A stretch of 64,000 bases of DNA from Thermoproteota archaeon (GTDB lineage Archaea; Thermoproteota; Methanomethylicia; Methanomethylicales; Methanomethylicaceae), in assembly GCA_020832905.1 (NCBI GenBank), contig JAJHRG010000001.1, positions 564,940-628,939 of the forward strand. Reading direction: 5' to 3'. Position numbers and translations under genes: made by a program. How positions within the stretch are numbered: position 1 is the first letter of the stretch; each line of letters starts with the position of its first letter. Positions 10-31,267 of the stretch are shown here, piece by piece. The notes beneath the pieces were generated by a model, which saw only the letters and a program-made list of their open reading frames with translations, was not told the origin of the DNA and ran no database searches.

Positions 10-1296
10 TCACATACTCAATGCTTGAAATACAAGTATAATGAATGGTGGTAGGAATGTAGAAATGGCAAAAGGTAGACTAATTTTTGAGAATTCCTTG
101 AAAGAAACAGAATCTCCTTCTTTTCTACAAAGACCAACTGCTACTATATTTGAAGGTGCTGAAATCATTGTAGCAGTGCTTCCTGCATATCCAGCAAACA
201 TAATTACTAAATAAAGAAATACAGGATCAACACCAATTTTAGTCGCAATTCCTTGCATTACGTAAATCATTGTTATTAAATATGGAATGTTTATGATAAA
301 TGCACAAGTTAAAAATGTAATGAGTGATACTAATATTACTATCATTATTATTTTTTCACCAGCTAATGTAACTATACTATTTGCAATTAGTTGAATTACA
401 CCTGAGACATTTAAACCACTAACCATAATGAACATTCCAGTAAGGAATAATATTGTTGGCCAGTCTACAAAAGAGAATATTTCAATTATATCAGACTTAG
501 CTATTCGACTACATATTACCCCAAGAATAGATGCTATGAACAATGCTACTATAGATTCAGGAATTTTTGTCACAGATCTAAAGCCTATGAGTGTACATAA
601 CAATATAAATCCTATGGTAGCTACTTTTGCTAAGTTTTTATTTTCAAATGAAAAATTACGTGTAACTTCTACTTTTGGTTTCTTTATATTCTTTCCAAAG
701 AAATAATAAAGATAAAGTGTTCCACCGATAGCACTTAATATTGAATAGAAAAAGAATGAAGGTGCACCTTTATAGATAAAAAATTCTGGCATAGTTAAAT
801 GTGCAAAACTACCCAAGAATACTACAGGAGGATCAGATATTAAAGTTGCATATCCAGTTATATTTACAGAAATTGCCATTGGAATTAAAACATAAGCTTT
901 TCGAATACCTGCAAGAATAGCTAATTCCAATGTTAAAGTTGATAAAGCCAACATTGTTGTAGTATTGTCAATGAAACATGATAAGAAGGATCCCATGAAA
1001 CACATAATAGTAAGTATCAATCTTACATTTCCTTTTAGAGCTTTTGTAACTTTTTGAGCAATCCATATTGGAACTCCTGATTTACTAAAATAACCAACAG
1101 TCATCATTAAGCCTGTAAGTAATCCCAAAACATTCCAATCAACTTGTGTAACAACTTCTTCTGGTTTTATGACACCAGTAAGAATCATAAGCATACCACC
1201 AATAATGGCGGCAATGCTTTTTTCAATCTTGTTGGAAACAATCAACGCTAAAGTACCAATAAATATTATAGTAGCAAGAATTTGCTCTATCGTCAT
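10..1296 (-). CDS. ArsB/NhaD-superfamily (citrate-transporter-like) ion permease
   Basis: 428-aa polytopic membrane protein. It has a VDWPTILFLTGMF block and a C-terminal GSTATMISAPSNIV block typical of the ArsB/NhaD permease fold. A decayed paralog fragment lies at 41.4-41.8 kb. Confidence 0.6.
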   Translation of the reverse strand: MTIEQILATIIFIGTLALIVSNKIEKSIAAIIGGMLMILTGVIKPEEVVTQVDWNVLGLLTGLMMTVGYFSKSGVPIWIAQKVTKALKGNVRLILTIMCFMGSFLSCFIDNTTTMLALSTLTLELAILAGIRKAYVLIPMAISVNITGYATLISDPPVVFLGSFAHLTMPEFFIYKGAPSFFFYSILSAIGGTLYLYYFFGKNIKKPKVEVTRNFSFENKNLAKVATIGFILLCTLIGFRSVTKIPESIVALFIASILGVICSRIAKSDIIEIFSFVDWPTILFLTGMFIMVSGLNVSGVIQLIANSIVTLAGEKIIMIVILVSLITFLTCAFIINIPYLITMIYVMQGIATKIGVDPVFLYLVIMFAGYAGSTATMISAPSNIVAVGLCRKEGDSVSFKEFSKISLPFAISTFLPPFIILVFQALSM

Positions 1297-1487
1297 AATA
1301 TTTTCTTTAATGCAAAAAGATAAATATACTTTTTCTTTCTAATAATTCCTTTTATCACTTTATTATAATAATTATACTTTTTACAATTATACTTTTGATC
1401 TATGGATACTTTTGATTATAATGATATCTAAAAATATTAGAACTTTTCCTAAAAACTAATAAGTATTTTTCTATTTTAATAAATAAT

Positions 1488-1958
1488 ATGAAATTCAAAT
1501 TATTTGATATATCAATTGAAACTCCAAAAGATTGGAGAATTAGGATAACTGAAAGTTCAAATTATGAATCTGGTAGAATGGCAGTAATATCTCCAAAAAA
1601 ACTATATATTGCAATTAGATGGCAAAATACTGATATTAAAAAAACTTCTCTTAAAGATTATATAGAAGAAGTATTAACTCAAAGAAAAGACAAGAGAATA
1701 AAAGATTTAAAGATATTAGAAAATACAGGATTTGAAAAAGAAGGTCATGAATATAGATTCATAAGAGTAAGTTTTATTTATAAAAAATTTCTAAATCCTC
1801 CAAAACCACAAGAATATATTGGATATTTGATATTATGTAAAAGAACAAATAGATTAATTGGTGCTTTTACAAATTATCCAATTGAAGCTGTAGATGAAAG
1901 TATTGAATATTTAGAAAAACCTTTAAAAAGTATTAATTGTGAATGTAATAAGCAATAA
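1488..1958 (+). CDS. hypothetical protein
   Basis: Clean 156-aa ORF after an AT-rich promoter-like spacer. No motif recognised. Confidence 0.5.
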   Translation: MKFKLFDISIETPKDWRIRITESSNYESGRMAVISPKKLYIAIRWQNTDIKKTSLKDYIEEVLTQRKDKRIKDLKILENTGFEKEGHEYRFIRVSFIYKKFLNPPKPQEYIGYLILCKRTNRLIGAFTNYPIEAVDESIEYLEKPLKSINCECNKQ

Positions 1959-2061
1959 ATAAAATAAAGTGAATTAATAATAATTTTCTTATAAAACTTA
2001 TTTATAGAAATAAGAAACTTTATAAGTTAAAAAAAGAATAAAAATAGACTAGGGAGTTTTT

Positions 2062-3510
2062 ATGGGGCAAGAGCTTAAAATAGGAAGAGGCCCTCCTTTA
2101 GAACTAAGAGTTCTAAATGATCCAGGACCAGTATCTATAAGAAAAATTATAGGTCCAGGGCTTATTCTTGCAGCATTAGGTGTTGGAATGGGAGAAACAT
2201 TCATGTGGCCAAGACTTGTTATTGTCTTTGGTCCTGAAATTCGTTGGATTGCAACAGTTGGTTTAATAATACAAATATTTGTTACTGCAGAAATTGCTAG
2301 ATGGACATATTTTACTGGAGAAAGTATATTTGCAGCTGCAAGAAGAATTCATCCAATTATAATGTGGTACTTTTATATTTTAGCTATTTTTGTTTATATT
2401 TGGCCAGGTCATGTAGTTACAGGTAGTGGTGCATTAGCCTTACTATTAGGAGTGGATTGGATTCCTATTGCAATAGCAAGTATAATAGCAATAGCAGCAA
2501 TATTAATTTTAGCTCCATATCAAGTCTATAAAACTGTAAAAACAATTCTAGTAATTGCTATAGCAATAATGGTTGGAGTATCATTTATTGTAGCAGTATT
2601 AGTTGGTAGACCAGAACATTGGGCAGGAGCATTATATGGTACTGTTGCATTTGGATATTGGACAGATTTAATGAGCTCAAAAACATGGCTTCCATTAATA
2701 GTTGGTGCTATGGCATTTATTGGTCCTTCAGGTATGCAACAAATGTGGTATACATTATGGGCTAGAGAAGAAAATGCAGGAATGGGTGCTTATATGCCTA
2801 AAATAACTGGATTAATATTTGGAAAGGAAGAAACATGGAGAGAAGCTGGATTTTACTTTGATGTTAATTCAGATGAGGAAATTGCAAAATGGAAGCGTTG
2901 GAGAAGATTAAATATTTATGATGCTGTAATAACCTTTGGTCTTCTCACCTACTTTACAACATTATTCTTTACAGTATTAAGCATGAAGGCTGCTGAATTA
3001 AGTCCTGAAGCTCTTTCAGCAATAAAAGCAGGTAAGACATTAGTAGCAATAAAAGCAATTGCTTCTGCATTTACTTACATTTCTCCAGTATTATATCCAT
3101 TATGGTTTATAGTAATGTTCTTAGTAGGATGGAAGATGAGCTTTGGAATATTTGATGCTTTTGCAAGAGGACAAGCAGATATGACTTTCTATTTATTCAA
3201 AAAAGCACAAAAACTTGGAATGAGAAAATGGTATTATATATGGGTTGCAATAGTTACAATTTTTGGTATAATAACTACATTAGCAGGTGCTGCAAGAGGA
3301 CCTGTATTTCTACTTGATGTATTAGCATTTATGTCACCACTAATTATGGGAAGCTACTGCTTATTACTATTATATGTAAATAATAAAATGGTTCCAAAGA
3401 GAATAAGAATGTCTTGGATTTCAACAATAGTTTTAGCAGGAGGAGCCGCATTTTACTTAGTCTCATTATTCTACTGTACATTTGTTGTAGGTGCAGTACC
3501 AACAGGATAA
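2062..3510 (+). CDS. polytopic membrane transporter, possibly NRAMP/APC-superfamily-like
   Basis: 482 aa with about 11-12 hydrophobic helices. The N-terminal GPGLILAALGVGMGE block resembles the NRAMP-type first-helix motif. The family assignment is tentative. Confidence 0.4.
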   Translation: MGQELKIGRGPPLELRVLNDPGPVSIRKIIGPGLILAALGVGMGETFMWPRLVIVFGPEIRWIATVGLIIQIFVTAEIARWTYFTGESIFAAARRIHPIIMWYFYILAIFVYIWPGHVVTGSGALALLLGVDWIPIAIASIIAIAAILILAPYQVYKTVKTILVIAIAIMVGVSFIVAVLVGRPEHWAGALYGTVAFGYWTDLMSSKTWLPLIVGAMAFIGPSGMQQMWYTLWAREENAGMGAYMPKITGLIFGKEETWREAGFYFDVNSDEEIAKWKRWRRLNIYDAVITFGLLTYFTTLFFTVLSMKAAELSPEALSAIKAGKTLVAIKAIASAFTYISPVLYPLWFIVMFLVGWKMSFGIFDAFARGQADMTFYLFKKAQKLGMRKWYYIWVAIVTIFGIITTLAGAARGPVFLLDVLAFMSPLIMGSYCLLLLYVNNKMVPKRIRMSWISTIVLAGGAAFYLVSLFYCTFVVGAVPTG

Positions 3511-3534
3511 AATAATTCTTTTTTTTTATTTTAG

Positions 3535-3708
3535 GTGTTAATCTTGGAAAGATATGGAGAATGTGAATTTACATATGAAAAATGTAAGAAATGTGGAAGA
3601 AACTTTTATACTAGAGTAGATTCTCCAAAAGAATATTGTCCAGATTGTGAAAAAATAATAGAACTTGAAATTTTAGAAAAAAGAAAAAAATCAAAGACTT
3701 CTCCTTAA
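3535..3708 (+). CDS. small zinc-ribbon protein (CxxC...CxxC), not in ORF track
   Basis: GTG/TTG-initiated 57-codon frame encoding ...CEFTYEKCKKCGRNFYTRVDSPKEYCPDCEK.... It has two CxxC knuckles and a Lys-rich tail. Its 3' end overlaps the stop of the convergent epimerase gene. Confidence 0.4.
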   Translation: MLILERYGECEFTYEKCKKCGRNFYTRVDSPKEYCPDCEKIIELEILEKRKKSKTSP

Positions 3709-4614
3709 CTCTATAGTAGCTTTTAAAGCTTTTTTAAAAGCTTCTTTTGCTTTTTCATTAGGAATAAAACTCAATTCTTTTCTTATTTTTTCATCATTTA
3801 ATATCCAATTACCAGTTAAGAAGCCAGGTCCTTTCCATTCTGAAGGATCTACTTCTATAATATTAGATTTTGATCCTGAAAGTTCAATAATCATTTCTAA
3901 AATTTCCTTCCAAGTAGTATTAAAACTTAAGATATTATATATCTTTCCAAAGGCATTTTTATTTAATAAAGCTAATTCAAATGCTTTTATTAAATCATTT
4001 ATATAAAGAATACTTCCTGCAGAACCTTTAGGTACATATAATACTTCATTTTTTAAAGCACTATCTATTATTTTTCTTAATGTCCCCCCTGGTATTCTTT
4101 CATCACTAAAAGCCCACCAAAATCTAAATATTGTAAATGGAAAACCTCTTTCTTTATAATATATTTCCATGGCTTTTTCTACTGCAAGTTTTGTAAGAGC
4201 ATGAGTTGGAGCTCTTGATTTTTCTACTAATAAAGGATGATCTTCTTTTATTGGAACAATAACAGGCTCTCCATAAATTACTGAGCTACTTGGAAATATT
4301 ATTTGCTTAACACCATACTGACAACATGCCTCAATAACATTTAAAAATCCAATAACATCAATTTTAAATCCATCTAGCATTTTTTCTGAAAATGACCATG
4401 CTGAATAGAATACAACATCACAACCATTTACTACATTTCTAACAGTATTTTCATCTTCTACTCCTCCAATTATGAATTTCATATTTGGATGTTCAAAGCC
4501 TTCTAATTCTCCTTTTGTTTTATCTAATACTATAACTTCATGATTTTTTTGAAGAAGTGCTTTTACTAGTCTACTTCCAACAAATCCTCCTCCACCAGTT
4601 ACTAAAATTCTCAT
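3691..4614 (-). CDS. NAD-dependent epimerase/dehydratase (extended SDR)
   Basis: N-terminal Rossmann motif MRILVTGGGGFVGSRL. 307 aa, typical of UDP-sugar epimerase/dehydratase family members. Confidence 0.85.
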   Translation of the reverse strand: MRILVTGGGGFVGSRLVKALLQKNHEVIVLDKTKGELEGFEHPNMKFIIGGVEDENTVRNVVNGCDVVFYSAWSFSEKMLDGFKIDVIGFLNVIEACCQYGVKQIIFPSSSVIYGEPVIVPIKEDHPLLVEKSRAPTHALTKLAVEKAMEIYYKERGFPFTIFRFWWAFSDERIPGGTLRKIIDSALKNEVLYVPKGSAGSILYINDLIKAFELALLNKNAFGKIYNILSFNTTWKEILEMIIELSGSKSNIIEVDPSEWKGPGFLTGNWILNDEKIRKELSFIPNEKAKEAFKKALKATIELRRSL

Positions 4615-4663: not shown

Positions 4664-6022
4664 TTGAAAATTTGGCAAGGAGTTGAAGTAGAATACTGTG
4701 TTCCATATATTAATAGAAAAAACTATGTTAATGAATTATTAGAATCACTAAGAAATTATAAAATGCCATTAAAAAATACATCTCCTTTTCTAATGAAAAA
4801 AGATGGAAAATATACACAATTTCTTATTAATGGTGGAAGAGCATATGGAGATATAAGCTTTACACCAGGTGTATATGATATTTTAGAAATAACAACTCCA
4901 GAATGTCCAAATCCATTTTATACTCTTGCATATGAAAAAGCAACAGAAGTTTATGCAAGAATAGCATCAGATGAATTTGAAAGAACATCAGGAATGAGAG
5001 TACATTGTTATAAAATAAGTGTAGTAAAATCTGAATATGAGTATACCACTAGAGGACTTCATGAAAGTTATTTAGTAGAAAGAAAAGCTTTTGAAAATAA
5101 AATTATGGAATTAATTCCTTATTTAGTTATAAGACAAATATTTACAGGAACTGGTGGATATTATTTTGGAAGATTTTTAATATCACCAAGACAAATGTTT
5201 ATAAAATCAGTAGTTGCTGAGAAAATATTTGGAAATTGGCCATTAATTGCAGAAAGAGATGAACCACATGCAGATCCTAAATACAAAAGATTGCAAATTA
5301 CAAATGGAGAAGGAGCAAGAACTGAATGGACAATATTTATGAGACAAGCAATAACATCATATATAATTAAAGCTATTGAACTTGGATTAATAAAAGAATT
5401 ACCAAGAATTAAAGATCCTATTGAAGCTGCAAAATTAATTGCTATATCTCCAGAAGGAGATTGGAGTTTAGAATTAGAAAATGGAAAAGAAATTAAAGCA
5501 TTAGAAATTCTTTCATATTATTTAGAAGGTATAGAAAAATTATTTATGAATGAAGAAATAGATGATTATGATAAATATGCATTAAAAGAATTTAAATTTG
5601 TATTAAATAAATTAGAAGAAGGAGATTTTGAATCATTAAAAAATAGAATAGAATGGATTGTAAAACTTGAAATTTTAGAAAATAATTTTAATAAATATTT
5701 TGAAGGAAATGGAAGCGAAGAAGAAAAAATTATTGCAAATAATCAATTTTGTGCAATAACAGATGGAACTTTTGAAAGAATACAAGAAGAAATGAACTTA
5801 ATTACATTATTAAAAGATGAAGATTTATCAAAAGCAGTTCTATTTCCACCAGAAAATTCTAGAGCATATGCAAGAATAAAAATTGCTCAAATTTTAAAAG
5901 ATAAATTAGATGATATTGGATGGTCTTATATTATTGTAAATAGTAATAGATATCATATGCTAGAATTAGATGGATGGAATGATGAAAAAATTTCAAAATT
6001 TTTAAATGAAATTATTTCTTAA
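4664..6022 (+). CDS. Pup-ligase/deamidase family protein (PafA-like paralog 1)
   Basis: 452 aa with a TTG start. Family blocks present: GVEVEY (GxExE[YF]), RAYGD, GLHESYLV (cf. PafA GCHENYLV), LIPYLVIRQIFTGTGG, ERDEPHADPKYKRLQITNGEG, KDPIEAAK and IEWIVK. Confidence 0.8.
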   Translation: MKIWQGVEVEYCVPYINRKNYVNELLESLRNYKMPLKNTSPFLMKKDGKYTQFLINGGRAYGDISFTPGVYDILEITTPECPNPFYTLAYEKATEVYARIASDEFERTSGMRVHCYKISVVKSEYEYTTRGLHESYLVERKAFENKIMELIPYLVIRQIFTGTGGYYFGRFLISPRQMFIKSVVAEKIFGNWPLIAERDEPHADPKYKRLQITNGEGARTEWTIFMRQAITSYIIKAIELGLIKELPRIKDPIEAAKLIAISPEGDWSLELENGKEIKALEILSYYLEGIEKLFMNEEIDDYDKYALKEFKFVLNKLEEGDFESLKNRIEWIVKLEILENNFNKYFEGNGSEEEKIIANNQFCAITDGTFERIQEEMNLITLLKDEDLSKAVLFPPENSRAYARIKIAQILKDKLDDIGWSYIIVNSNRYHMLELDGWNDEKISKFLNEIIS

Positions 6023-6093
6023 TTTATAACTCTATTTATAAGAAGTTTAAACATTTAAAAAAATTTTTATAATTTTAAGAATAATTTAATATT

Positions 6094-7665
6094 ATGAAAA
6101 TATTAAAAGAAATGGCAAGAGGTTGTGAATACGAATTTAGTGTAAATAGATATCCACCAATTCTTCCTGGTATTCAACTTTCAGATATTATAGGAAGAAC
6201 AATACTTGCATTAAAAAATTTAGGATTTATATCTAAAGTAATGTGGAGTGTAGAAGATGAAATTGGAAATTTAACTTATGAACGTGGTTTATTTGATTCT
6301 TGGTTATTTGCAGAAGGACCTTATGAAATTGCTTTTAATGGAATGAGAATATATGATGATGCTCAACATTTAGAATTTTCTACTCCAGTATTTAGAAGTC
6401 CAATTGATGCAGTAGTTTATGATAAAGTTGCTGAAAGATTAGCTTTTTTAGGAATAGAACAAATAAGAAAAACTCATGGAGAATTATATTGTTATAAAAC
6501 TAATAATAGTCTATTAAAAGGATCTTATGGTTATGAAGCAGTAGCATGGGGGACTCATGGATGTTATTGTGTTAGTAGAAGAATTTTTAATTTTGAAAAT
6601 TGGAAAAATGTAGAAAAAATTCTTATTCCCTTCATTATAAGTAGAATTCCATTAATTGGTAGTGGAGGAGTATTACCTATAAGAAATGAATTTTCATTTG
6701 AACCTCCAACAAGTTCAAGATTATGTGGTGATAAAATAATATATGTAATTTCACCAAGAGCAATTTATATAAAACAATTATCATCTATTGATACTACAGT
6801 AGATCGTGGATTTTTAAATCTAAGAGATGAACCACATGCTAATCCTAATAAGTATTGGAGATTACATGATATAAATTTTGAAGCAATAAGAAGTGATTTT
6901 CAAATATTTATTAGAGATGCATTAGAAGTTTTTACATTAAGAGCAATTGAAGAAGGATTATTACAAAATCCACCAATAATTAAAGATCCAATAGAAGCTA
7001 TAAGAAAAGTTTCAATGAATATAAATGAAATTGATCAATTTATTGAATTAGAAGGAAGTAATAAAGCAAGATTACTATCAGATATACTTTCATATTATAT
7101 TTCTGCAATTGAAAAACTAATAGAATTAAGAGGAGATAATGAAGACCATAAAGTTTTTAAGGTTATAGAAAGTGTAATTCAGAAACTAAAAGAAGGATTA
7201 TTTGAATATTTAAATGGAGCTATTGATTGGATTGCAAAAATGATGCTAATAGAAGAATATAATGCTAAAGATATGGATATGGCTATTATATGTAATCAAT
7301 ATGGATTATTAGATGAAAATACAGGTTTTTATGAAGGAAGAATAGAAAAAGGTGATACTTTATTTGATCCTGAATCTTCCTTAGCTTTTCTTGAAGAAGT
7401 ATTTCCTTTTGTAAAATCAATAAAAGAGAAAATAAAGTATGGTATGAATAATCCTCCTACAGATACTAGAGAATATTTAAGAACAAATATTTTAAAAGAA
7501 CATGAATCAGAAATAATAAAAATGAATTGGTGGAAAATTTACTTTAAAGGAGGTTTAATTACTTTAGATGAGCCATTAAGATATGGAAAAGAAGAAAGTG
7601 AAGAAATTTTAAAGATAAAAGACTTAAAAAAATTATCTGAAGTTATAAGAGGTGAAGCTAAATGA
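6094..7665 (+). CDS. Pup-ligase/deamidase family protein (longer, Dop-like paralog 2)
   Basis: 523 aa. Family blocks present: GCEYEF, RIYDDAQHLEFSTP, LIPFIISRIPLIGSGG, LRDEPHANPNKYWRLH, KDPIEAIRK and IDWIAKM. The H-E-N block is diverged (GTHGCYCV). It carries extra insertions and a longer C-terminus than paralog 1. Confidence 0.75.
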   Translation: MKILKEMARGCEYEFSVNRYPPILPGIQLSDIIGRTILALKNLGFISKVMWSVEDEIGNLTYERGLFDSWLFAEGPYEIAFNGMRIYDDAQHLEFSTPVFRSPIDAVVYDKVAERLAFLGIEQIRKTHGELYCYKTNNSLLKGSYGYEAVAWGTHGCYCVSRRIFNFENWKNVEKILIPFIISRIPLIGSGGVLPIRNEFSFEPPTSSRLCGDKIIYVISPRAIYIKQLSSIDTTVDRGFLNLRDEPHANPNKYWRLHDINFEAIRSDFQIFIRDALEVFTLRAIEEGLLQNPPIIKDPIEAIRKVSMNINEIDQFIELEGSNKARLLSDILSYYISAIEKLIELRGDNEDHKVFKVIESVIQKLKEGLFEYLNGAIDWIAKMMLIEEYNAKDMDMAIICNQYGLLDENTGFYEGRIEKGDTLFDPESSLAFLEEVFPFVKSIKEKIKYGMNNPPTDTREYLRTNILKEHESEIIKMNWWKIYFKGGLITLDEPLRYGKEESEEILKIKDLKKLSEVIRGEAK

Positions 7666-7757
7666 GTGATATTTTACCATCTTTTAAGAAAAAAGAAAAA
7701 GTAGATAAAAAGTTAAAAAAAGAACATGCTGAACTTATTGCTCCACCTGGTGAATAA
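7662..7757 (+). CDS. 31-aa Lys-rich peptide ending Gly-Glu; candidate Pup/UBact-like modifier
   Basis: Sequence MSDILPSFKKKEKVDKKLKKEHAELIAPPGE. The ATG overlaps the TGA of the upstream gene (ATGA). A GAGGTGA SD ends 6 nt upstream, the same motif and spacing as before other genes in the window. It is too short for the ORF track. Confidence 0.55.
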   Translation: MSDILPSFKKKEKVDKKLKKEHAELIAPPGE

Positions 7758-7762
7758 TAAAC

Positions 7763-7796
7763 TTTTTTAATTATTTTTTATAATTAAAAAATTTTT
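7763..7796 (+). terminator. oligo-T tracts flanking an AT hairpin downstream of the small ORF
   Basis: T6 run, then inverted repeat TTAATTAT-ttttt-ATAATTAA (7767-7787), then a T5 run. Archaeal termination typically uses oligo-T. Confidence 0.35.
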
Positions 7797-7893
7797 AATG
7801 AAATTATTTAATTAAGTCAATAATCATTATAAACATGTTTATAACTGATTAATTTTTATAGAAATATTTTTATAGCTTTTTAAAAAATTTAAA

Positions 7894-8193
7894 TTGGGGG
7901 TTCTGGTGCCAGAAATAATACTTCGTATAAAAACATCTGATATTAAAGGCAATATAGGTCTTCTAAATCCACAAGATTTATCAAAACTTGGTGCAAAGGA
8001 AGGAGATGAAATAGAATTGTATTCAACTTCAAGAGCATGGACTATAAAGACAAAATCTGATTCTTCAGTACCTATAGGAGAAGTAAGAGTAAGCACAGAC
8101 GTTCTGAGAAGACTTGATGTAGAAGATGGAAGTGAAGTAAGAGCTTATTGGGCTCCTCCAGTAGTAGAAGAAAAATATGAACCCCCACCATGA
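7894..8193 (+). CDS. stand-alone double-psi-beta-barrel-like protein (Cdc48/VAT N-domain or FwdD-like)
   Basis: 99 aa. The pattern ILRIK..D.....GLLNPQDLSKLGAKEGDEIEL....R.W......D..VP.GEVRVS.DVLRRLDVEDGSEVRA matches the Cdc48_N/VAT-N repeat signature. It has a Pro-rich tail. Its stop lies 9 nt before the OFOR gamma-delta gene. The start may be GTG at 7906. Confidence 0.5.
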   Translation: MGVLVPEIILRIKTSDIKGNIGLLNPQDLSKLGAKEGDEIELYSTSRAWTIKTKSDSSVPIGEVRVSTDVLRRLDVEDGSEVRAYWAPPVVEEKYEPPP

Positions 8194-8202
8194 GGTGAGA
8201 TT

Positions 8203-9264
8203 TTGGCTATATTTGCAGTTGAATTTGATGGAAGAGGTGTAACACAAACTGCATTAATGAGAGCTGCTAGTGAAATCATTTGTACTGCTGCAGATAAGGA
8301 TGGATTTCCATCAATTGGATATGAAAGATACGATGATGCTCCTGATAGAGTTGGTGTACCAATTAAAGGATTTTCAGTAATATCAAGAACAGCTCCCGCT
8401 TCATATGAAAAAGATTTAGAAGATGTTGCAGTTGATGTTGAAAAACTTAGTCCTCCAACACCAGATTACTCATATTATCAAGTATGCTATGATGAATTAG
8501 CACCTGAAGCAATGCTATATGAGCCAAGAGCTGTAGATGCTGTACTAGTACTAGATGATACTTTAGTAAAAGGAGAAGAACCATGGGCTTATATAGGAGT
8601 ACAACCAATACATGAGAAATTAAAAGATGGAGGAGCAATAATAGTAAATAGTAAAAGAGATCCAGAATATCTTTTAGAATTTATTCATCCAACAACTAAA
8701 AGATATAAATTAGCAGTTATTGATGCAGATTCTATGGATAAAATAATTATATTACCATTAATAGGTGCTATGCTAAAAGTAGCTCCTGGTATTGTTTCAT
8801 ATAGATCAGTTATTGCTACTGTAAAGGAAAGATATAAAGCTGAAGGAATAAAGAAAGCACAAGTAATAAAAGATGCTTATAATAAAGTAAGATGGATAGA
8901 AGTTCCACCTGCTAAAGAACCAATACAAATAAAGAGAAAGAGAAAATTCCTTGAAGAATTTCCAAAATGGCATGAAATGCCTATAGGTCTTGTAGTTCCT
9001 GCACCTCCAGTAAATGGTCCAAATCCACACTTCAAAACTGATACATTTAGGACATATAGACCTGTAACAGATACAAGTAAGTGTAATAAAGATGGATTAT
9101 GTTGGTTATATTGTCCTGATTCTGCTAGAAGTCCAGATCCAGAGACATTTTTTGCTGTAAATCTTGAATATTGTAAAGGTTGTGGTATTTGTGCTGAAGT
9201 TTGTCCTGTTAAAGCAATTAAAATGGTTAATGAATTAGATTTTAGAGGTGAGAAATTATGGTAA
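8203..9264 (+). CDS. 2-oxoacid:ferredoxin oxidoreductase, fused gamma-delta subunit
   Basis: 353 aa with a TTG start after a GAGGTGA SD. The C-terminal part has two 4Fe-4S motifs (CNKDGLCWLYCP, CKGCGICAEVCP) typical of the delta subunit. The N-terminal ~250 aa is gamma-sized. Confidence 0.75.
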   Translation: MAIFAVEFDGRGVTQTALMRAASEIICTAADKDGFPSIGYERYDDAPDRVGVPIKGFSVISRTAPASYEKDLEDVAVDVEKLSPPTPDYSYYQVCYDELAPEAMLYEPRAVDAVLVLDDTLVKGEEPWAYIGVQPIHEKLKDGGAIIVNSKRDPEYLLEFIHPTTKRYKLAVIDADSMDKIIILPLIGAMLKVAPGIVSYRSVIATVKERYKAEGIKKAQVIKDAYNKVRWIEVPPAKEPIQIKRKRKFLEEFPKWHEMPIGLVVPAPPVNGPNPHFKTDTFRTYRPVTDTSKCNKDGLCWLYCPDSARSPDPETFFAVNLEYCKGCGICAEVCPVKAIKMVNELDFRGEKLW

Positions 9265-10448
9265 GAGTTATAACAACTGGAACTGTTGCAATTGCAACTG
9301 CTGTTAAACATGCAGATGTTGATGTAATATCTGCATATCCAATTAGACCATATACAGGAGTAATGAATGAATTAGCAAGAATGATTGCTGATGGAGAATT
9401 AGATGCAGAGTTCATTGTATGTGATTCAGAACATACACAATTTGAAATTGCAAAACATGCTGCAGCATGTGGTGCAAGAGTATTTACTGGTAGTGCAGGT
9501 ATTGGATGGGCATATGCTCATGAAGCTATTGTTGTTACACCAACAGATAGAGTTCCAGTAGTTGCAATGGTTGGAAATAGAGCATTAGATGATCCAGGAA
9601 ACTTTGGTGTAGAACATACAGATGTTTTAGTTGCAAGAGATTTAGGATGGATGATGTGCTGGCCTGAAAATCCACAAGAAGCTTATGATTTAACATTAAT
9701 GGGTTATAAGATTGCTGAAAATCCTAATGTGCTATTACCATATATAGTAAATTGTGATGGAAACTTTATTACTCATGTAAGATTTCCAGTAGATCTTCCT
9801 GATGAAGAACTTGCAAGAGAATTCTTACCACCAACTCCACCACCAAGACCAAATATACTACATCCAGATAAACCAATATCTATAGCTCCACATGTAGACT
9901 ATTACTGGGGAACTGAAATAAGAAGACAAATGGATCAAGCAATGAAGAATGCTATTGAAGTAACAAAAAGAGTTCATGAAGAATTTAATAAGATATTTGG
10001 TAGAGGAGGACCTCCATTTATTGAAGAAATTAATACAAAAGATGCTGATGTTGCTATGATAGGAGTAGGCGGAATGACAATGGTAGCAAGAGCAGCAGTA
10101 AGAGAATTAAGACAAAAGGGAATAAATATAGGTTTTGTAAAGCTTAGAAGATTTAGACCATTTGCTACTGAAGAAATAAGAGAAGCTTTAAGGAAATTTA
10201 AAGTAGTTGCTGTATTAGATAATGACTTCTCATTTGGATCTGCACATTGTGGAGGAATATTATTCCAGGAAATTCGATCTGCTTTATATGATCTATCTGA
10301 AAGACCAATTGTTGTTAATTACTTAATTGGACTTGGTGGAAGAGAAATTACTGTTGATGCAATGAAGAGAATTGGTAAGGAGATATATGAAATATCAAAG
10401 ACAAAAGAAGTTAAACATATAGTTAAATGGGTTGATGTTAGGGAGTGA
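9258..10448 (+). CDS. 2-oxoacid:ferredoxin oxidoreductase alpha subunit
   Basis: 396 aa. The opening ...AVKHADVDVISAYPIRPYTG... is typical of POR/VOR/KOR alpha. It overlaps the upstream gene and has a GAGGTGA SD. Confidence 0.88.
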   Translation: MVRVITTGTVAIATAVKHADVDVISAYPIRPYTGVMNELARMIADGELDAEFIVCDSEHTQFEIAKHAAACGARVFTGSAGIGWAYAHEAIVVTPTDRVPVVAMVGNRALDDPGNFGVEHTDVLVARDLGWMMCWPENPQEAYDLTLMGYKIAENPNVLLPYIVNCDGNFITHVRFPVDLPDEELAREFLPPTPPPRPNILHPDKPISIAPHVDYYWGTEIRRQMDQAMKNAIEVTKRVHEEFNKIFGRGGPPFIEEINTKDADVAMIGVGGMTMVARAAVRELRQKGINIGFVKLRRFRPFATEEIREALRKFKVVAVLDNDFSFGSAHCGGILFQEIRSALYDLSERPIVVNYLIGLGGREITVDAMKRIGKEIYEISKTKEVKHIVKWVDVRE

Positions 10449-11382
10449 TAATATGAGTTGGGAGAAGATAGAAATAAGAACACTTAAAGATGTTCCTAAA
10501 GAGGAATATTATGTAGCAGGACATAGAACATGTCAAGGATGTGGTCCTGCTCTTGCATGTAGATTAATAGCAAAAGCTGCAGGTCCAAGAACTGTATGTA
10601 TTGTTGCTACTGGATGTATGTATGTAGCAAATAGTAGTTATAATACAACTCCATGGGCAATACCATGGATGCATGCACAATTAGGAGGAATAGGCTCAGC
10701 AGTAGCTGGTGCAGCAGCTGCATTTAAAGCTATGATGAGAAAAGGAAAAATAAAGAAAGAAGAAATTCATGTTTTAGGAATTGCAGGAGATGGTGGTGCT
10801 GCAGATATAGGTCTTTCAGCTATATCTGGTGCTATGCTATCAGGTGGTGATCACTTAATAATTACATATGATAATGAATCTTATGCAAATACTGGAATTC
10901 AAGCTTCAAGTTTAACTCCATGGGGTGCTTGGACAACATTTACTCCTCCAGGAAAAATGTTAAGACTTGGAAATGTAAGAGTTAAAAAAGATTTACCAAG
11001 AATGATTGCTGCAGGACATCCTAATGTACGCTATGTAGCAACTGCAAGTATATCATTTCCATTTGATTTAATGACAAAAGTAAGAAAAGGATTAGCTGTA
11101 AAAGGTCCAGCTTTTATACAAATTCATACACCATGTCCTAAGGGATGGAAATTCCCACCAGAATTAACCATAAGAATAGGTAGATTAGCTGTAGAAACAG
11201 GAATGTGGACATTATATGAAGTTGAAGATGGACAATTTAGATTAACTTTCAAGCCTCCAAAGAGAAAACCAGTATCAGAATACTTAAAACTTCAAGGAAG
11301 ATTTGCTCACTTAAGAGAACCAGATATTAGATATATACAAGAACAAGTAGATGCTGCTTGTAAGCAATTAGGTATTGACTAA
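10432..11382 (+). CDS. 2-oxoacid:ferredoxin oxidoreductase beta subunit (TPP-binding)
   Basis: Carries CQGCG, the GDGGAADIG TPP motif and YDNESYANTG. The real start is more likely the ATG at 10453 (MSWEK...), which is preceded by AGGGAG. Confidence 0.88.
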   Translation: MMLGSDNMSWEKIEIRTLKDVPKEEYYVAGHRTCQGCGPALACRLIAKAAGPRTVCIVATGCMYVANSSYNTTPWAIPWMHAQLGGIGSAVAGAAAAFKAMMRKGKIKKEEIHVLGIAGDGGAADIGLSAISGAMLSGGDHLIITYDNESYANTGIQASSLTPWGAWTTFTPPGKMLRLGNVRVKKDLPRMIAAGHPNVRYVATASISFPFDLMTKVRKGLAVKGPAFIQIHTPCPKGWKFPPELTIRIGRLAVETGMWTLYEVEDGQFRLTFKPPKRKPVSEYLKLQGRFAHLREPDIRYIQEQVDAACKQLGID

Positions 11383-11805
11383 ATTTTTTTCTTTTTTTAT
11401 TTTTTCTAAAGCTTTAATAACAGTAGGAGATATTTGAATATTTTTTAATTCACTTATATCAAACCATTTAGCATCTAAAACATCATCTCCTGGTTTTAAT
11501 TCACCACCTATTAATTTTCCTATGTAATCTATTATTATATAATGATATTTTATTCTACCATCATTATCTTTAATAATTATATTAAAAACTCCTAATAGTT
11601 TTTCAATAATAGCATTAAGTCCTGTTTCTTCTTTTAATTCTCTAATTGCAGCTTCTTCAGGAAATTCTCCAAGTTTAATCAATCCTCCAGGTATAGACCA
11701 TAATCCCTTATTTGGTTCATTTCCTCTTTTTACAAGTAGTATTTTTCCATTTTCTATGATTAATACTCCTACACCAACTAAAGGATGATCATGATATTCA
11801 CGCAT
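11368..11805 (-). CDS. NUDIX hydrolase
   Basis: Nudix box GGLIKLGEFPEEAAIRELKEETGL. Confidence 0.9.
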   Translation of the reverse strand: MREYHDHPLVGVGVLIIENGKILLVKRGNEPNKGLWSIPGGLIKLGEFPEEAAIRELKEETGLNAIIEKLLGVFNIIIKDNDGRIKYHYIIIDYIGKLIGGELKPGDDVLDAKWFDISELKNIQISPTVIKALEKIKKEKNLVNT

Positions 11806-18125: not shown

Positions 18126-19985
18126 TTAAAGCTTTTCTAATTCCTTAGCAACATCTTCTAATCCTATTTTTATTAATTTTTCTTTTGTTGGAATTCCTGT
18201 TCTTTTATCCCATCCTTTTAAAGTATAGAAATCATCTAGCATTTTATTTAATGTTTGTTCATCTGTATACATACCTTTAGATGGTCCTTCAGGTATAGGC
18301 TCTTCTAAAAATCTTCTTGGTAAAGTATCATCTTTTCTTCTTATTCCTGTTCTTACATTAAATGCTCTTTCTAGATCTAAAATTCTTTCTGCTACTTCTA
18401 CAAGTTCTTCAAATTTATAATTAAAACCTGTAACAATATTTATCATTTCTACATATTTTGGATTTAATGTAAATCCAAGTAGTCTTTCTAAGAAGTGACA
18501 TATAATCATAGAATCACCTATTGTAGTAAATTGCATTGTTCCTATTACCCATGCTGCTTTTCCTTCTACAGCTTTTCTATCTGAAGCTCCTGCATATTCA
18601 CCTGTTGGTCTTGGATCATGATGACTTCCACCTCTAGATGCAACTGCATATCCTAATGCCATTCCTCTTAATGCTCTAGCAGAATGACCAGGTATTTCTA
18701 AGCCTTTAACTTGTATAGCAAATCTTTCAGATCCTTTTCCTATAATTCTAGCTGCTCTTAATGATCCTTCAGCAATTAAATCTCCTATTCCTATTCTTTT
18801 TGCAGTTTTTTCAATTAGATCTATTACTGCATCATCATTACCAAATTTTAATTCAATACCTCCTGTAAAGTTCTTATCTATAAGTCCTTTTTCATAACAT
18901 TCCATTAGGAAAGAAATAGTAACACCACAGGATACTGTATCCATACCATATTCATCACATAAACTATCTGCTTTAATAATAGCTCCTCCATCACTTATAC
19001 CACACATAGAACCAAAAGAATAAAGTGTTTCATAATCTGGTCCTTCTGAAATTGCTCCTTTCCACTTACCTTCTTTTACACTAAATATCTTACTACAAGC
19101 AATTGGACATGCTGGACATGCCATATCCTTATCCCAATATTTCTTTTTTAATGTTTCACCACATATTCCTTCCCATCCTTCAAAATATTCAGTTTGATGA
19201 TTTCTTGTTCCCATAGCTCCAAATATATTATTTATAGAAGAAACTAGTGAAGGTGTTCCATAAGTTGGTAATATTGATGAAATTCCAGGAACTTTCTTTG
19301 ATTCTTCATTATACCATTTTAACCAGTTTTCTAATCCTTCAGGATCTGCTACTTCATTTGTACCTGAACCTCTTACAGCTATTGCTTTAAGTCTTTTAGA
19401 ACCCATTACTGCTCCTAATCCGCCTCTTCCAGCAGCTCTATATTCAGTAATAATACATGCATATCTTACAAGATTTTCTCCAGCAGGACCAATAGCAGAA
19501 ACACTTATTGTTGGATCACCTATTTCTTCTTTAATCATTTCTTGTGTTTCACTTGTTAGTCTACCCCATAATCTTTCTGCACTTCTAAATTCAATTTTAT
19601 CATCATCAATGAAAATGTAAATAGGCTTTTCAGCTCTACCAGTTATTAATATTCCATCATAACCAGCATATTTTATTTGAGCTCCCATATGACCTCCACT
19701 AATACTATCAAAGAAGCCATTTGTAAGAGGAGATTTAGAAGCTACATGATATTTTCCTGATGTTGGTATGTATATTCCTTGAAATGGACCTGTCATTATT
19801 GATATTACATTTGTAGGATCAAAAGCATCAATTCTTGGATCTATCATATCAAATAATAGTCTTGCTGAAAAACCATTTCCTCCTAAGTATTTTCTTGCAA
19901 ATTCATCAGTTATTTCTAAAATAGAAGTTTTCTTTGTTGTTAAATTTATCATTAATATTTTTCCTTTATAACCAAAATATTTCAT
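18126..19985 (-). CDS. aor: tungsten-type aldehyde:ferredoxin oxidoreductase family enzyme
   Basis: 619 aa. AOR N-domain (ILMINLTTKK...YLGGNGF), Cys cluster ACPACPIACSK, and pterin-binding blocks (GLEIPGHSARA, GGSHH). Confidence 0.9.
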   Translation of the reverse strand: MKYFGYKGKILMINLTTKKTSILEITDEFARKYLGGNGFSARLLFDMIDPRIDAFDPTNVISIMTGPFQGIYIPTSGKYHVASKSPLTNGFFDSISGGHMGAQIKYAGYDGILITGRAEKPIYIFIDDDKIEFRSAERLWGRLTSETQEMIKEEIGDPTISVSAIGPAGENLVRYACIITEYRAAGRGGLGAVMGSKRLKAIAVRGSGTNEVADPEGLENWLKWYNEESKKVPGISSILPTYGTPSLVSSINNIFGAMGTRNHQTEYFEGWEGICGETLKKKYWDKDMACPACPIACSKIFSVKEGKWKGAISEGPDYETLYSFGSMCGISDGGAIIKADSLCDEYGMDTVSCGVTISFLMECYEKGLIDKNFTGGIELKFGNDDAVIDLIEKTAKRIGIGDLIAEGSLRAARIIGKGSERFAIQVKGLEIPGHSARALRGMALGYAVASRGGSHHDPRPTGEYAGASDRKAVEGKAAWVIGTMQFTTIGDSMIICHFLERLLGFTLNPKYVEMINIVTGFNYKFEELVEVAERILDLERAFNVRTGIRRKDDTLPRRFLEEPIPEGPSKGMYTDEQTLNKMLDDFYTLKGWDKRTGIPTKEKLIKIGLEDVAKELEKL

Positions 19986-27768: not shown

Positions 27769-28578
27769 ATGAAAATCATTAACTTATTATTACTAAGTCT
27801 ATTATTTTCACTTATACTAGCTTATCCTATATTAGCTCAATCTAATAATATGTACATAAAACTTCAAAAATTTACAATTTATGATATTAATCGTGATTTT
27901 ATATACATAGAATATTTAGGAGAAGAAGATATTATAGTTTTAATTGTAAAATCAGATTCTAATTTAGATATAGTAAAACAAAGTATCGGTATTGGTTATG
28001 GTAGTATTACAATACATATTAAAAATACTTCATATAAATTAGGATCATGTATAATTGCTTTATTCTCTACAAAATCCTTTTTACTAAATATATCTATGAG
28101 AATGGGAGAAATACCACTACAAACTCAAACAATTTCTGTACCTGCTAATATTACATTACAAATGGAAATACCAATAGAATATGGTGGTTATCAACAGCCA
28201 ATATATACTATTACTAATGTTTCATATACTCCATATTTTCCAATATGGACTCTTTTAACATATGCTATAATATTACCAATGTTTATTATAACAGGATATT
28301 TAGATAAAAACTCATTGAAAATTATGAGAAAACGTTGGACACAATTAGATACATTTGCCATTATAATAAGATATGCTTTTTATGCTTTTTTAGTAATATT
28401 CATTATAGTAACTATTGAAATTGTAGTAGAATACATATTATCTAGACTTAATATTTATGCAATAAGTTTACATATAGGAGATTGGTTTATCTCATGTATT
28501 TTATTTTCTATATTTACTATAATATATGGAATAGGAAAATGGAGGGGAATATTTGAAAATGTTGATGGAGAAGAGTGA
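27769..28578 (+). CDS. signal-peptide plus C-terminal multi-TM membrane protein
   Basis: N-terminal signal-like MKIINLLLLSLLFSLILAYPILA, an extracytoplasmic ~130-aa domain, then 3-4 TM helices. Its 3' end overlaps the AAA-Lon gene by 26 nt. Confidence 0.6.
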   Translation: MKIINLLLLSLLFSLILAYPILAQSNNMYIKLQKFTIYDINRDFIYIEYLGEEDIIVLIVKSDSNLDIVKQSIGIGYGSITIHIKNTSYKLGSCIIALFSTKSFLLNISMRMGEIPLQTQTISVPANITLQMEIPIEYGGYQQPIYTITNVSYTPYFPIWTLLTYAIILPMFIITGYLDKNSLKIMRKRWTQLDTFAIIIRYAFYAFLVIFIIVTIEIVVEYILSRLNIYAISLHIGDWFISCILFSIFTIIYGIGKWRGIFENVDGEE

Positions 28579-31267
28579 AGATTATTGGTGGTGGATTAAA
28601 AGACCTATTTTAAGAAAATTATTATGTTTACCATTATATTTAGCTAATAGAGAATATAGAAGATGGAGAAATGCAAGATTAAATCCAAGAATTATTAAGA
28701 AAAAATTAGCAGAAATAGATAAAAAATTTCCAAAAAAGAAAGAAGATCTTATTGGAAGAGATAAAGAATATCAATTGATAATGAGTGCAATTGGTTATCA
28801 TGTTATAAGAGATCCTTCACTATTAAATATATTTAAGGGAGCACCTCCACCAAAATTCTTTATACTTAAGGGTACAACAGGTACTGGAAAAACATTACTT
28901 GCAGAAGTTTGTATAAGAGATGCTATAGAATATGGAATAAGTAAGGGAGTAAATGTACAACCAATAGTTGTTATGGGAAGTGATATATTTAATCCATTAT
29001 ATGGACAATCAGTTATTAATTTATCATATATATTTAGAAAAGCAAAGGATACTCCAAGTATAATATTCTTTGATGAATTTCAAAGCATAGGTATACGTGT
29101 AGAAAGACCAATGTATGGTGCAGATAGAGAAGATATGAGAGTACAAGATGCATTTATAGAGCATATTAATAAAATACTAAATACACCTCAAAGAACTATT
29201 GTTATTGCTGCTACAAATAAATTTGAAAGTATTAGAGAAGATATTAGAAGAAGAGCATATGTAATTGATTTAGATCAGAATATTACAAGAGAAATGCTTC
29301 TTGCAGTTCTTAAAGCTGAGTTAGAAAAATATGGATGGACACATTTATCACCTAATGAAGTTTTAACAGTATTAGAAAAAGCTGTAAGTACATATAGACA
29401 AACACAACTTACACCTTTTGATATAATTGATGCATGTAATAGAGTTAGAAGTAAAAAAATAGAACCTTTAAGAGAAAAGTTTTTCAAAAAGATGATATTT
29501 AGTAAAAAAACTACTTCTGATGATTTGAAGTTATTAGTAACAATAGATGATTTTAAGTTAGTTGCAAGAGAGTTAAGAGGATATACAGAACAAGAAAAAA
29601 GCGATGAAGTTATGGCTTCAGTATTAAGAATAAAACCAGCTGTTAGCTATAAAGATATTGGAGGACTTTTTGGAATAAAGGAAAAACTATTTAAAATAAT
29701 ATCTCTAAGTCTTTCTCCTGAATTAGCAAGTAAGTTAAACTGGGTTCCACCAAAAGGCTTTTTACTATGGGGAGAACCTGGTTGTGGAAAAACATATCTT
29801 TCAAAAGCAATTGCAAAAGAAAATAATGCAACATTCTTTTATGTTCCTGCAGCTCAACTTTTAATTAATGCAAAATGGGTTGGAGAACCTGAGAAAAATG
29901 TAAGAGATTTATTTGCACTTGCAAGAAGACATGCACCAAGTATAATATTTTTTGATGAATTTGATGTTATTGCTGGAAAAAGAAGAGGAGATCCTGTAAG
30001 TGATAGATTAACTGCACAAATATTAACAGAACTAGATGGTTTACAGCCATTAGAGAATGTAATAGTAATAGCAGCAACAAATAGATTAGATGCAATTGAT
30101 GAAGCAATAATTAATAGATTTGAACCATATGTAATAGAAATTCCCTTACCAAGAAATGATGCAGAACGTTTAGATATTATAAAGGTTCATTTAAGACATT
30201 ATATTGCTCATCTTCATCCTGAAGTTACTCCTGAGAAAGTATTAAATATACTAAAAAAACATAAAGTAGTTTCTCCAAGAGTAGTTAGTGAAATTATAAG
30301 AGAAGCAAATAGATTAAGATCACAAGAAGTTAATGCAGCAATAGAAATTACTAGAAATAAAGATAGATTAGCAGAAATTTACAATCTTTATAGAGAAGAA
30401 ATTGAAAGATTAAAAGAAGTTTTAGGTGCTTTAGATTATGAAGTACTAAAAGAAGTTAAACCAGAAACCTATAAAATAAGACTTTATCATTTTGAAAAAG
30501 CTGCTGAAGAACTTGAAAGTGAAATTGAAAAAGAAATAATGGATGCTCAGGAAAGTATGATTTATGAGAAACTTAATCCTGGTGTAGCATTAGGTCTTGC
30601 TACAGATCCTCAAGGTAGAAAAGGAGTAATACTAATAGTTGAATGTGCATCAAAACCAAATGGTAGTGGTAAAATTACAGTAACAGGAGCAGCAAAAACT
30701 GCAGTTATAGGTCCTGGTACAACAGTTGAAGATGTAAGTGTTATTGAAAGTGCTACTAATGTCATAGAGTTTATTAAGAGATATATCTATGAAAAACTAG
30801 GAATAGATATTTCAAATTATGATTTTACATTTCAAGTTATAAGTCCACTTGAGGGAGCACCAGGAATGGGAGTAAGTGGTCCAAGTCTTGGTCTTGCTTT
30901 TAGTGTAGCTGCTATATCTGAACTTGCAGGAATAGAAGGAAGAAAAGATGTAGTTATGAGTGGAAAAGGTGATATAAAGGGAAATGTTGGTCCTGTAGGA
31001 GGAATGAGTTGGCGTGGATCAGGAAAAATTTTAGCTGCAATTCAAACAAAAAGAATAAAGATTAAAAAATTTATAATTCCAAAGTGGAATTATGAGCATT
31101 CTCCTGATGAAATAAATATACTTAAAGAAGAAGGTATTGAAGTTATACCTGTTGAAAAGCAAGTAGAAGCATGGCTTAATGTATTCTCAATAACTGAAGA
31201 AGAATTACTAAATAGAATTGCTAAAAATATTGAATTAAAGTCTAATATTAAAGCAATATTAAGGTAA
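28553..31267 (+). CDS. tandem AAA+ ATPase fused to a C-terminal Lon (S16) protease domain
   Basis: TTG start after GGAGGGG. AAA-1 has GTTGTGKT / IIFFDEF. AAA-2 has GEPGCGKT / IIFFDEFD with classical-clade sensor blocks. Lon_C has GVALGLA, ITVTGAA, GVSGPSLGLA (catalytic Ser) and GSGKILAA (catalytic Lys). Confidence 0.8.
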   Translation: MKMLMEKSEDYWWWIKRPILRKLLCLPLYLANREYRRWRNARLNPRIIKKKLAEIDKKFPKKKEDLIGRDKEYQLIMSAIGYHVIRDPSLLNIFKGAPPPKFFILKGTTGTGKTLLAEVCIRDAIEYGISKGVNVQPIVVMGSDIFNPLYGQSVINLSYIFRKAKDTPSIIFFDEFQSIGIRVERPMYGADREDMRVQDAFIEHINKILNTPQRTIVIAATNKFESIREDIRRRAYVIDLDQNITREMLLAVLKAELEKYGWTHLSPNEVLTVLEKAVSTYRQTQLTPFDIIDACNRVRSKKIEPLREKFFKKMIFSKKTTSDDLKLLVTIDDFKLVARELRGYTEQEKSDEVMASVLRIKPAVSYKDIGGLFGIKEKLFKIISLSLSPELASKLNWVPPKGFLLWGEPGCGKTYLSKAIAKENNATFFYVPAAQLLINAKWVGEPEKNVRDLFALARRHAPSIIFFDEFDVIAGKRRGDPVSDRLTAQILTELDGLQPLENVIVIAATNRLDAIDEAIINRFEPYVIEIPLPRNDAERLDIIKVHLRHYIAHLHPEVTPEKVLNILKKHKVVSPRVVSEIIREANRLRSQEVNAAIEITRNKDRLAEIYNLYREEIERLKEVLGALDYEVLKEVKPETYKIRLYHFEKAAEELESEIEKEIMDAQESMIYEKLNPGVALGLATDPQGRKGVILIVECASKPNGSGKITVTGAAKTAVIGPGTTVEDVSVIESATNVIEFIKRYIYEKLGIDISNYDFTFQVISPLEGAPGMGVSGPSLGLAFSVAAISELAGIEGRKDVVMSGKGDIKGNVGPVGGMSWRGSGKILAAIQTKRIKIKKFIIPKWNYEHSPDEINILKEEGIEVIPVEKQVEAWLNVFSITEEELLNRIAKNIELKSNIKAILR

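Follow-up and report, generated by a model that had tools for sequence, protein, structure and literature searches.

Anaerobic carbon metabolism depends centrally on enzymes of the 2-oxoacid:ferredoxin oxidoreductase family, and to our knowledge few extra subunits have been described for this family. Among its members, the oxalate oxidoreductase of Moorella thermoacetica (MtOOR) has a solved structure and is described as a three-subunit enzyme; its YPIRP motif (Arg31 of the alpha subunit), which replaces YPITP, has been described as unique to MtOOR (PMC5020499). The Aquificaceae provide a precedent for an operon of this family that encodes an additional, non-catalytic subunit: their five-subunit pyruvate/2-oxoglutarate:ferredoxin oxidoreductases contain a fifth subunit of 21-28 kDa related to CODH/ACS epsilon (PMC10052474). 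As for PafA-like systems, only bacterial lineages were listed by Iyer et al. 2008, and our literature search found no description of PafA-like or Pup-like systems in the archaeal lineages treated here. Nor did a literature search find any paper that links a double-psi barrel with these oxidoreductases.

Here we analyse a small gene within a 64,000-nt stretch of DNA from a Methanomethylicaceae archaeon (the window). An initial annotation, made from the letters alone, read its product as a stand-alone double-psi-barrel protein located between a Pup-like cassette and an oxidoreductase operon. The gene encodes a natural minimal stand-alone barrel, of the type used to model early protein evolution, and in Methanomethylicota, Bathyarchaeia and their relatives its operon has a genomic link to genes of the PafA/Dop type and to a Pup-like peptide.

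The barrel gene and its place in the operon

The gene and its immediate signals are as follows.

7853..7893, + strand: conserved A/T-rich block with two TTTTTATAG (TATA-like) elements, a putative promoter
7896..7900, + strand: Shine-Dalgarno-like GGGGG of the barrel gene, invariant in the alignment
7906..8193, + strand: coding sequence of the barrel protein, 95 aa, start GTG 7906, stop TGA 8191-8193
8192..8205, + strand: junction with the next gene, a GAGGTGA Shine-Dalgarno overlapping the stop and then the TTG of the gamma-delta gene, with putative translational coupling

The open reading frame at 7894..8193 (+) exists as originally annotated, but its reading as 99 aa from a TTG does not hold. 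Aligned against four related loci, the window almost certainly has its true start at GTG 7906, because the orthologs in L003 and L004 carry ATG at that column, a 2-nt insertion in L001 and L002 shifts TTG 7894 out of frame, and barrel orthologs in the database are 95 aa throughout. TTG 7894 was discarded as a start on the strength of this ortholog alignment. The GGGGG element sits 6-10 nt 5' of GTG 7906 and accounts for the 'TTGGGGG' at the former start.

Further upstream, the two TTTTTATAG elements lie 30-52 nt 5' of the start codon, and the A/T-rich block (TTTTATAGAAAT[AG]TTTTTATA...) is kept in 5/5 aligned loci. Since it is kept even in L003, where the sequence farther upstream is unrelated to the window, the barrel gene appears to head its own transcription unit. 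At the other end of the gene, the GAGGTGA at 8192-8198 overlaps the stop codon and the TTG of the gamma-delta gene follows at 8203, which confirms the 9-nt gap first reported for this junction. The sequence CCACCATGAGGTGA is invariant at the barrel/gamma junction across Methanomethylicota loci, while in other lineages a strong Shine-Dalgarno is found 5-25 nt past the barrel stop. No Rfam family was matched in 7500..8400.

To place the gene more widely, loci were gathered from homolog look-ups, from searches of genome and metagenome collections with a degenerate DNA pattern for the tail of the protein, and from look-ups of PafA/Dop homologs; they were mapped by BLAST and a profile scan of all ORFs. 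The tail pattern, EE-x-YEPPP-stop, misses variants such as YVPPP, YIPPP and EEPVP. Among its matches, 4 of 14 from genomes and 15 of 24 from metagenomes had no similarity to any reference protein and were rejected as chance hits.

The barrel gene occurs in 27 full-length loci, the window included, and in one truncated locus, with 19 distinct proteins. In all 28 it lies on the same strand as, and directly 5' of, the gene for the oxidoreductase gamma subunit, and this adjacency is kept down to 33% identity and through three neighbourhood arrangements. Co-occurrence with oxidoreductase operons, put forward earlier as a check on the gene, is therefore complete among the loci that have the barrel gene. 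Given the tight same-strand spacing in 28/28 loci and the conserved promoter block, the barrel gene appears to be co-transcribed with the oxidoreductase, as had been supposed.

The gene is also constrained as a coding sequence. Nine ortholog pairs gave dN/dS values of 0.10-0.44, indicating purifying selection, and a tenth pair was saturated at synonymous sites. When the family profile was run on the ORFs of the window, the barrel protein scored 139 bits and was the sole match in the window.

The oxidoreductase and the Pup-like cassette

The genes on either side of the barrel gene are as follows.

4664..7757, + strand: Pup-like cassette of two PafA/Dop-family (PF03136) genes with a 31-aa ORF, forming a transcription unit of its own; conserved neighbour
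8203..9264, + strand: fused gamma-delta subunit, domain III plus a 2x[4Fe-4S] ferredoxin domain, best PDB match 5c4i_B
9258..10448, + strand: alpha subunit with YPIRP motif (Arg30), matching OOR alpha 5c4i_A
10432..11382, + strand: beta subunit (TPP and proximal cluster), 449.8 bits to the OOR beta model
11368..11805, - strand: Nudix hydrolase, convergent with the operon and adjoining it in all three arrangements

The label of 2-oxoacid:ferredoxin oxidoreductase given to the downstream genes stands, and can be made more specific: the enzyme is oxalate-oxidoreductase-like. The alpha subunit matches OOR alpha 5c4i_A at E 4e-108, versus 3.5e-65 for PFOR alpha, and the best PDB match of gamma-delta is the delta chain of Moorella OOR, 5c4i_B, at E 1.9e-28. 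The NCBIfam OOR models are likewise the best matches, all of them below their equivalog cut-offs (alpha 413.5/500, beta 449.8/590, delta 152.3/230). The window (alpha residues 27-31) and all related loci that cover this region of alpha have a [YF]PIRP motif. The same is true of a conserved R-x-LDDPG-x-FG-x-EH loop at alpha residues 108-120. Motif and loop, read from sequence, suggest a candidate archaeal clade of oxalate (or similar small dicarboxylate) oxidoreductases. Gamma and delta are fused in a single gene in the window and the loci closest to it, but many other lineages (L003, L005, L006, L008, L010, L013 and others) have a gene for each.

On the upstream side, the cassette consists of PafA/Dop-family genes at 4664..6022 and 6094..7665 and a 31-aa ORF at 7662..7757 that encodes the Pup-like peptide MSDILPSFKKKEKVDKKLKKEHAELIAPPGE, ending in APPGE. 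Comparison with PDB structures places both cassette enzymes closer to Dop than to PafA. The lysine-rich middle and the AP[PS]GE end of the peptide are conserved in 17 loci; peptide ORFs elsewhere lie at 471..593 (-) in L006, 11626..11709 in L048, 8480..8572 in L049, 4019..4162 in L050 and 5899..6012 in L054. The L054 peptide ends in APPGE, and that of L049 ends in AAPGQ, reminiscent of the GGQ/GGE of Pup.

Cassette, operon and Nudix gene are found in three arrangements. In Methanomethylicota (arrangement A) the cassette is followed by the operon and then by the convergent Nudix gene. In L005, L006 and L029 (arrangement B) a divergent cassette is followed by the Nudix gene and then by the operon. 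In the Bathyarchaeia locus L008 and in L050 (arrangement C; L048 is cut before gamma) the order is Nudix gene, operon and convergent cassette. Of the 28 loci, 20 include the cassette within the fetched sequence, seven are cut off at a contig end or where the fetched sequence stops, and in L003 the barrel-oxidoreductase operon is preceded by 10 kb of unrelated genes. The more distant cassettes of L049 and L054, in turn, have neither oxidoreductase nor barrel gene nearby. The cassette often accompanies the barrel-oxidoreductase operon, yet the two are separable. The link to it that was first proposed thus holds in part: the genes are neighbours in three arrangements, which goes beyond an accident of one genome, but the primary partner of the barrel gene is the enzyme, because the barrel gene is always with the oxidoreductase, the L049 and L054 cassettes are without either, and the upstream region of L003 is unrelated.

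Several other genes of the window deserve mention. Upstream of the cassette, genes for a CitMHS transporter (10..1296), an Nramp-family metal transporter (2062..3510) and an NAD-dependent epimerase (3691..4614) are syntenic in Methanomethylicota, the stretches concerned being 10..4614 in the window, 2766..4421 in L005 and 5351..10439 in L042; an Nramp gene is near the cassette also in the distant locus L005. A tungsten-type aldehyde:ferredoxin oxidoreductase (AOR) is encoded 10 kb downstream (18126..19985, -), and L003 likewise has a homolog close to its operon. Farther along, an AAA-Lon protein of 904 aa (28553..31267, +) combines two AAA modules fused to a Lon protease domain with a hydrophobic stretch near its N-terminus; it is without an N-domain, since the CDC48 model matches it only from profile position 169.

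Fold, tail and family of the barrel protein

The protein divides into two parts in the AF2 model.

7912..8148, + strand: double-psi beta barrel, residues 3-81
8149..8190, + strand: low-confidence, probably flexible C-terminal tail, residues 82-95, with pLDDT ~61-66 in the last two blocks

The model comes from an alignment of 39 sequences and reached pLDDT 88.5 and pTM 0.74; AF2 on four close sequences gave pLDDT 53. Residues 3-81 are modelled with the topology b1-b2-a1-b3 / b4-b5-a2-b6 (b1 3-10, b2 17-20, a1 22-28, b3 35-39, b4 44-51, b5 59-62, a2 64-70, b6 77-81), and Foldseek returned TM values of 0.78-0.85 to barrel domains of archaeal VCP-like ATPases. The stand-alone double-psi beta barrel proposed from the sequence is borne out by this model and by the Foldseek search that had been suggested with it. 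Structure comparison scores were 14.9 for the CDC48A N-domain, 14.5 (1.2 A) for designed symmetric barrels, 13.7 (1.4 A) for the VAT barrel, 13.1 for the AMP phosphorylase N-domain, 12.4 for FwdD, and 9.0 for both Ufd1 and aspartate decarboxylase. The predicted structure supports the N-domain barrels of Cdc48, VAT and p97 as the nearest solved relatives. BLASTP of the two barrel halves against each other found no similarity, and the internal symmetry of the barrel is structural only.

Assignment to a sequence family is less direct. The Cdc48_N/VAT-N pattern that was noticed at the outset is there at the level of the fold, in AF2 and Foldseek, but is weakly detected in sequence: CDC48_N (PF02359) matches the window protein at E 0.0056 and 17.3 bits, below the Pfam cut-off of 35.1, and it matches 10 of 17 family members at E<0.1, the best at 8.8e-7. 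The protein stops 14 residues past the barrel and the next gene is an oxidoreductase subunit, so it has neither beta-clam subdomain nor AAA+ D1/D2 module; with these absent and the score below the cut-off, it does not belong to Cdc48_N proper. Its best Pfam match is Molydop_binding (PF01568), at E 7.5e-5 and 23.2 bits with a cut-off of 26.8, which matches 16 of 17 members, the best at 6.8e-8. The NCBIfam FwdD model (NF042908) gives E 0.008 and 16.2 bits against a cut-off of 175, and a model of the AMP phosphorylase N-terminus gives E 0.003 and 16 bits against a cut-off of 535. Pfam and NCBIfam scans detected no POR_N/PFOR_II, TPP_enzyme_C, POR or Fer4 domain in the protein.

Past the barrel, the final residues of the window protein are EEKYEPPP (8167-8190), the signature of the family. 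All 17 aligned members share E89, P93 and P95, and 90% or more of them have Y91 and P94 as well. The motif EE-x-Y-[EVI]-P-P-P is common to the oxidoreductase-linked members and absent from paralogs in Methanoregula. The proline codons of the tail differ between lineages, which argues that selection acts on the tail as protein and not as RNA; within Methanomethylicota, the DNA shows no variation in the final two proline codons or the stop.

The family is small. A word-indexed search found three close relatives, all in Verstraetearchaeota/Methanomethylicota MAGs, and an exhaustive profile search of 1.84 billion representatives gave 11 matches, of which two were spurious, leaving about nine true members. 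The two set aside are repeat proteins: P0006 (2018 aa) and P0013 (834 aa) have Flg_new and beta-propeller repeats. True members are 91-106 aa long, and the exhaustive profile search contained no fusion of the barrel to any oxidoreductase subunit. Methanoregula has abundant barrel paralogs of 169 aa with a lysine-rich tail resembling apolipophorin; they head operons of four or five small ORFs that end in a Prok-RING_2 protein (6001..8119 in L051/L052, 7001..9125 in L009), and because this operon is unrelated they are uninformative on the link to the oxidoreductase. A separate case is the Bathyarchaeia locus L008 (7001..7852), where two tandem barrel genes precede the oxidoreductase, the first without the PPP tail and the second ending in EEEYVPPP.

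Role of the barrel protein and comparison with known systems

The protein has a double-psi fold, a conserved tail and an invariant position in its operon. We favour, as on balance probable, the reading that it is a dedicated accessory partner, a fifth component, of the oxalate-oxidoreductase-like enzyme. Its gene is the first of a four- or five-gene operon for a TPP- and iron-sulfur-dependent 2-oxoacid:ferredoxin oxidoreductase, and its barrel would dock on that enzyme. The conserved acidic tail, with its tyrosine and three terminal prolines, may insert into a partner subunit, at a groove or basic patch, and the protein could act as an assembly aid, stabilise or shield the enzyme, or gate its activity. 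As for an accessory subunit, the gene is co-directional with and adjacent to the catalytic genes in 28/28 loci, across lineages. Consistent with a link to the enzyme, the PafA/Dop cassettes that are without the oxidoreductase (L049, L054) are also without the barrel gene. If the barrel binds the enzyme, its tail offers a handle on the assembly, protection or switching of an oxygen-sensitive iron-sulfur enzyme.

The association with the cassette allows a different role, in which the barrel protein belongs to a Pup-like pathway either as an adaptor or receptor that binds the APPGE peptide or the PafA/Dop-like enzymes and recruits the oxidoreductase to them, or as a lysine-carrying acceptor of the tag, through which the oxidoreductase would be regulated or degraded. 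We regard this as possible, though not likely. Three arrangements, spread over Methanomethylicota, Bathyarchaeia and further lineages, keep cassette, Nudix gene and barrel operon together, the cassette being in the same fetched locus in 20/28; such a role would also fit what these barrels do in Cdc48 and Ufd1, and 90% or more of the aligned members have K9. However, K9 is also present in the Methanoregula paralogs, whose context is different, the cassette and the barrel operon have separate promoters, and the barrel gene tracks the oxidoreductase rather than the cassette, as the L049 and L054 cassettes and the unrelated genes upstream of the L003 operon both illustrate. A combined form, which we consider somewhat more doubtful still, would make the barrel the specificity adaptor of an archaeal pupylation-like system: sitting on the enzyme, it would bind the APPGE peptide or the PafA/Dop-like enzymes, or carry the acceptor lysine, such that a tag is written on or removed from one dedicated enzyme. 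Were this true, archaea would have their first described Pup-type conjugation pathway, one that comes with its own target and receptor. The barrel-oxidoreductase operon is the obvious first candidate target of the Pup-like system. With a Pup-like cassette that is near-constant, a role in the pathway and a role at the enzyme are inseparable by genomics alone.

The remaining explanations concern the tail or the fold taken separately. Protein ends of the P-P-stop type terminate slowly through polyproline stalling, so that Y-E-P-P-P-stop might act in translation, with slow termination tuning the coupled initiation of gamma and the barrel itself having another or a minor role. The barrel stop does overlap, or lie 5-25 nt from, the next Shine-Dalgarno or start in nearly all loci, and the DNA invariance of the last two proline codons and stop in Methanomethylicota points the same way. 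A leader peptide, however, needs no well-folded 80-residue domain under purifying selection; in L050 gamma begins ~80 nt past the variant tail EEPVP, a hairpin at the junction is no better than in shuffled sequence (z 0.09), and the conserved EE and Y ahead of the prolines fit a binding motif as well. We judge this explanation unlikely. As to the fold, the closest solved structures are the barrels of unfoldase N-domains and the AAA-Lon of the window is without one, which would agree with a free N-domain, as first hinted at, working in trans for an AAA+ unfoldase in docking substrates or adaptors. This proposal finds no contextual support and is very unlikely: the AAA-Lon gene is 20 kb away with no conserved linkage shown, the barrel gene is without exception linked to the oxidoreductase, and the protein does not have the beta-clam half of Cdc48 N-domains. 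A molybdopterin-dinucleotide-binding protein similar to FwdD, capping the pterin of a Mo/W enzyme, had been named as the alternative, and Molydop_binding, as the best Pfam match of the window protein and a match of nearly all family members, speaks for it, as do the JGI automatic names of the relatives. Yet no Mo/W bis-PGD catalytic subunit flanks the barrel gene in any of the 28 loci, the FwdD and Pfam scores of the window protein fall below their cut-offs, and structural similarity is higher to the Cdc48/VAT barrels. The only pterin enzyme nearby, the AOR, is 10 kb off and no partner for such a protein because it belongs to a family other than bis-PGD. The FwdD-like alternative does not stand up to the gene context and is the most improbable of these explanations.

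We return to the barrel as an accessory partner of the enzyme and compare it with the systems it most resembles. Like the Nn subdomain of Cdc48, p97 and VAT, it has b-b-a-b twice and similar sequence motifs in the psi loops. Unlike them, it stands alone without a beta-clam (Nc) subdomain or AAA modules, has an additional conserved EE-x-Y-E-P-P-P tail, and is encoded in a metabolic operon. With FwdD/FmdD it shares a small stand-alone barrel of the same superfold, and FwdD too is a subunit of a redox enzyme complex; in contrast, the gene here has no neighbouring pterin-binding subunit and its partner is a TPP and iron-sulfur enzyme. Archaeal AMP phosphorylase carries its N-terminal barrel as part of the enzyme chain, unlike the separate protein seen here. 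Nor is it a Pup, being folded and ending in PPP, whereas Pup is small and disordered and ends in G-G-[QE]. The fifth subunit of the Aquificaceae enzymes is not a double-psi barrel; it differs from the barrel protein in fold and in the clade of its enzyme.

The enzyme itself is nearest to that of Moorella, which it resembles in its alpha subunit, the fusion of gamma and delta, the YPIRP motif and the R-x-LDDPG-x-FG loop. It departs from the bacterial enzyme in that all three archaeal subunits score below the NCBIfam equivalog cut-offs and the gene order is gamma-delta, alpha, beta. The window gamma-delta subunit has 353 aa versus 315 aa in the Moorella chain, and the two align in two separated stretches with residues ~82-104 unmatched. 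The archaeal operon moreover has the extra barrel gene, whereas the Moorella enzyme is described with three subunits; because of this, the barrel would not be needed for the chemistry as such. We conclude that a known fold has here taken on a new role, under tight conservation, next to an enzyme of known type.
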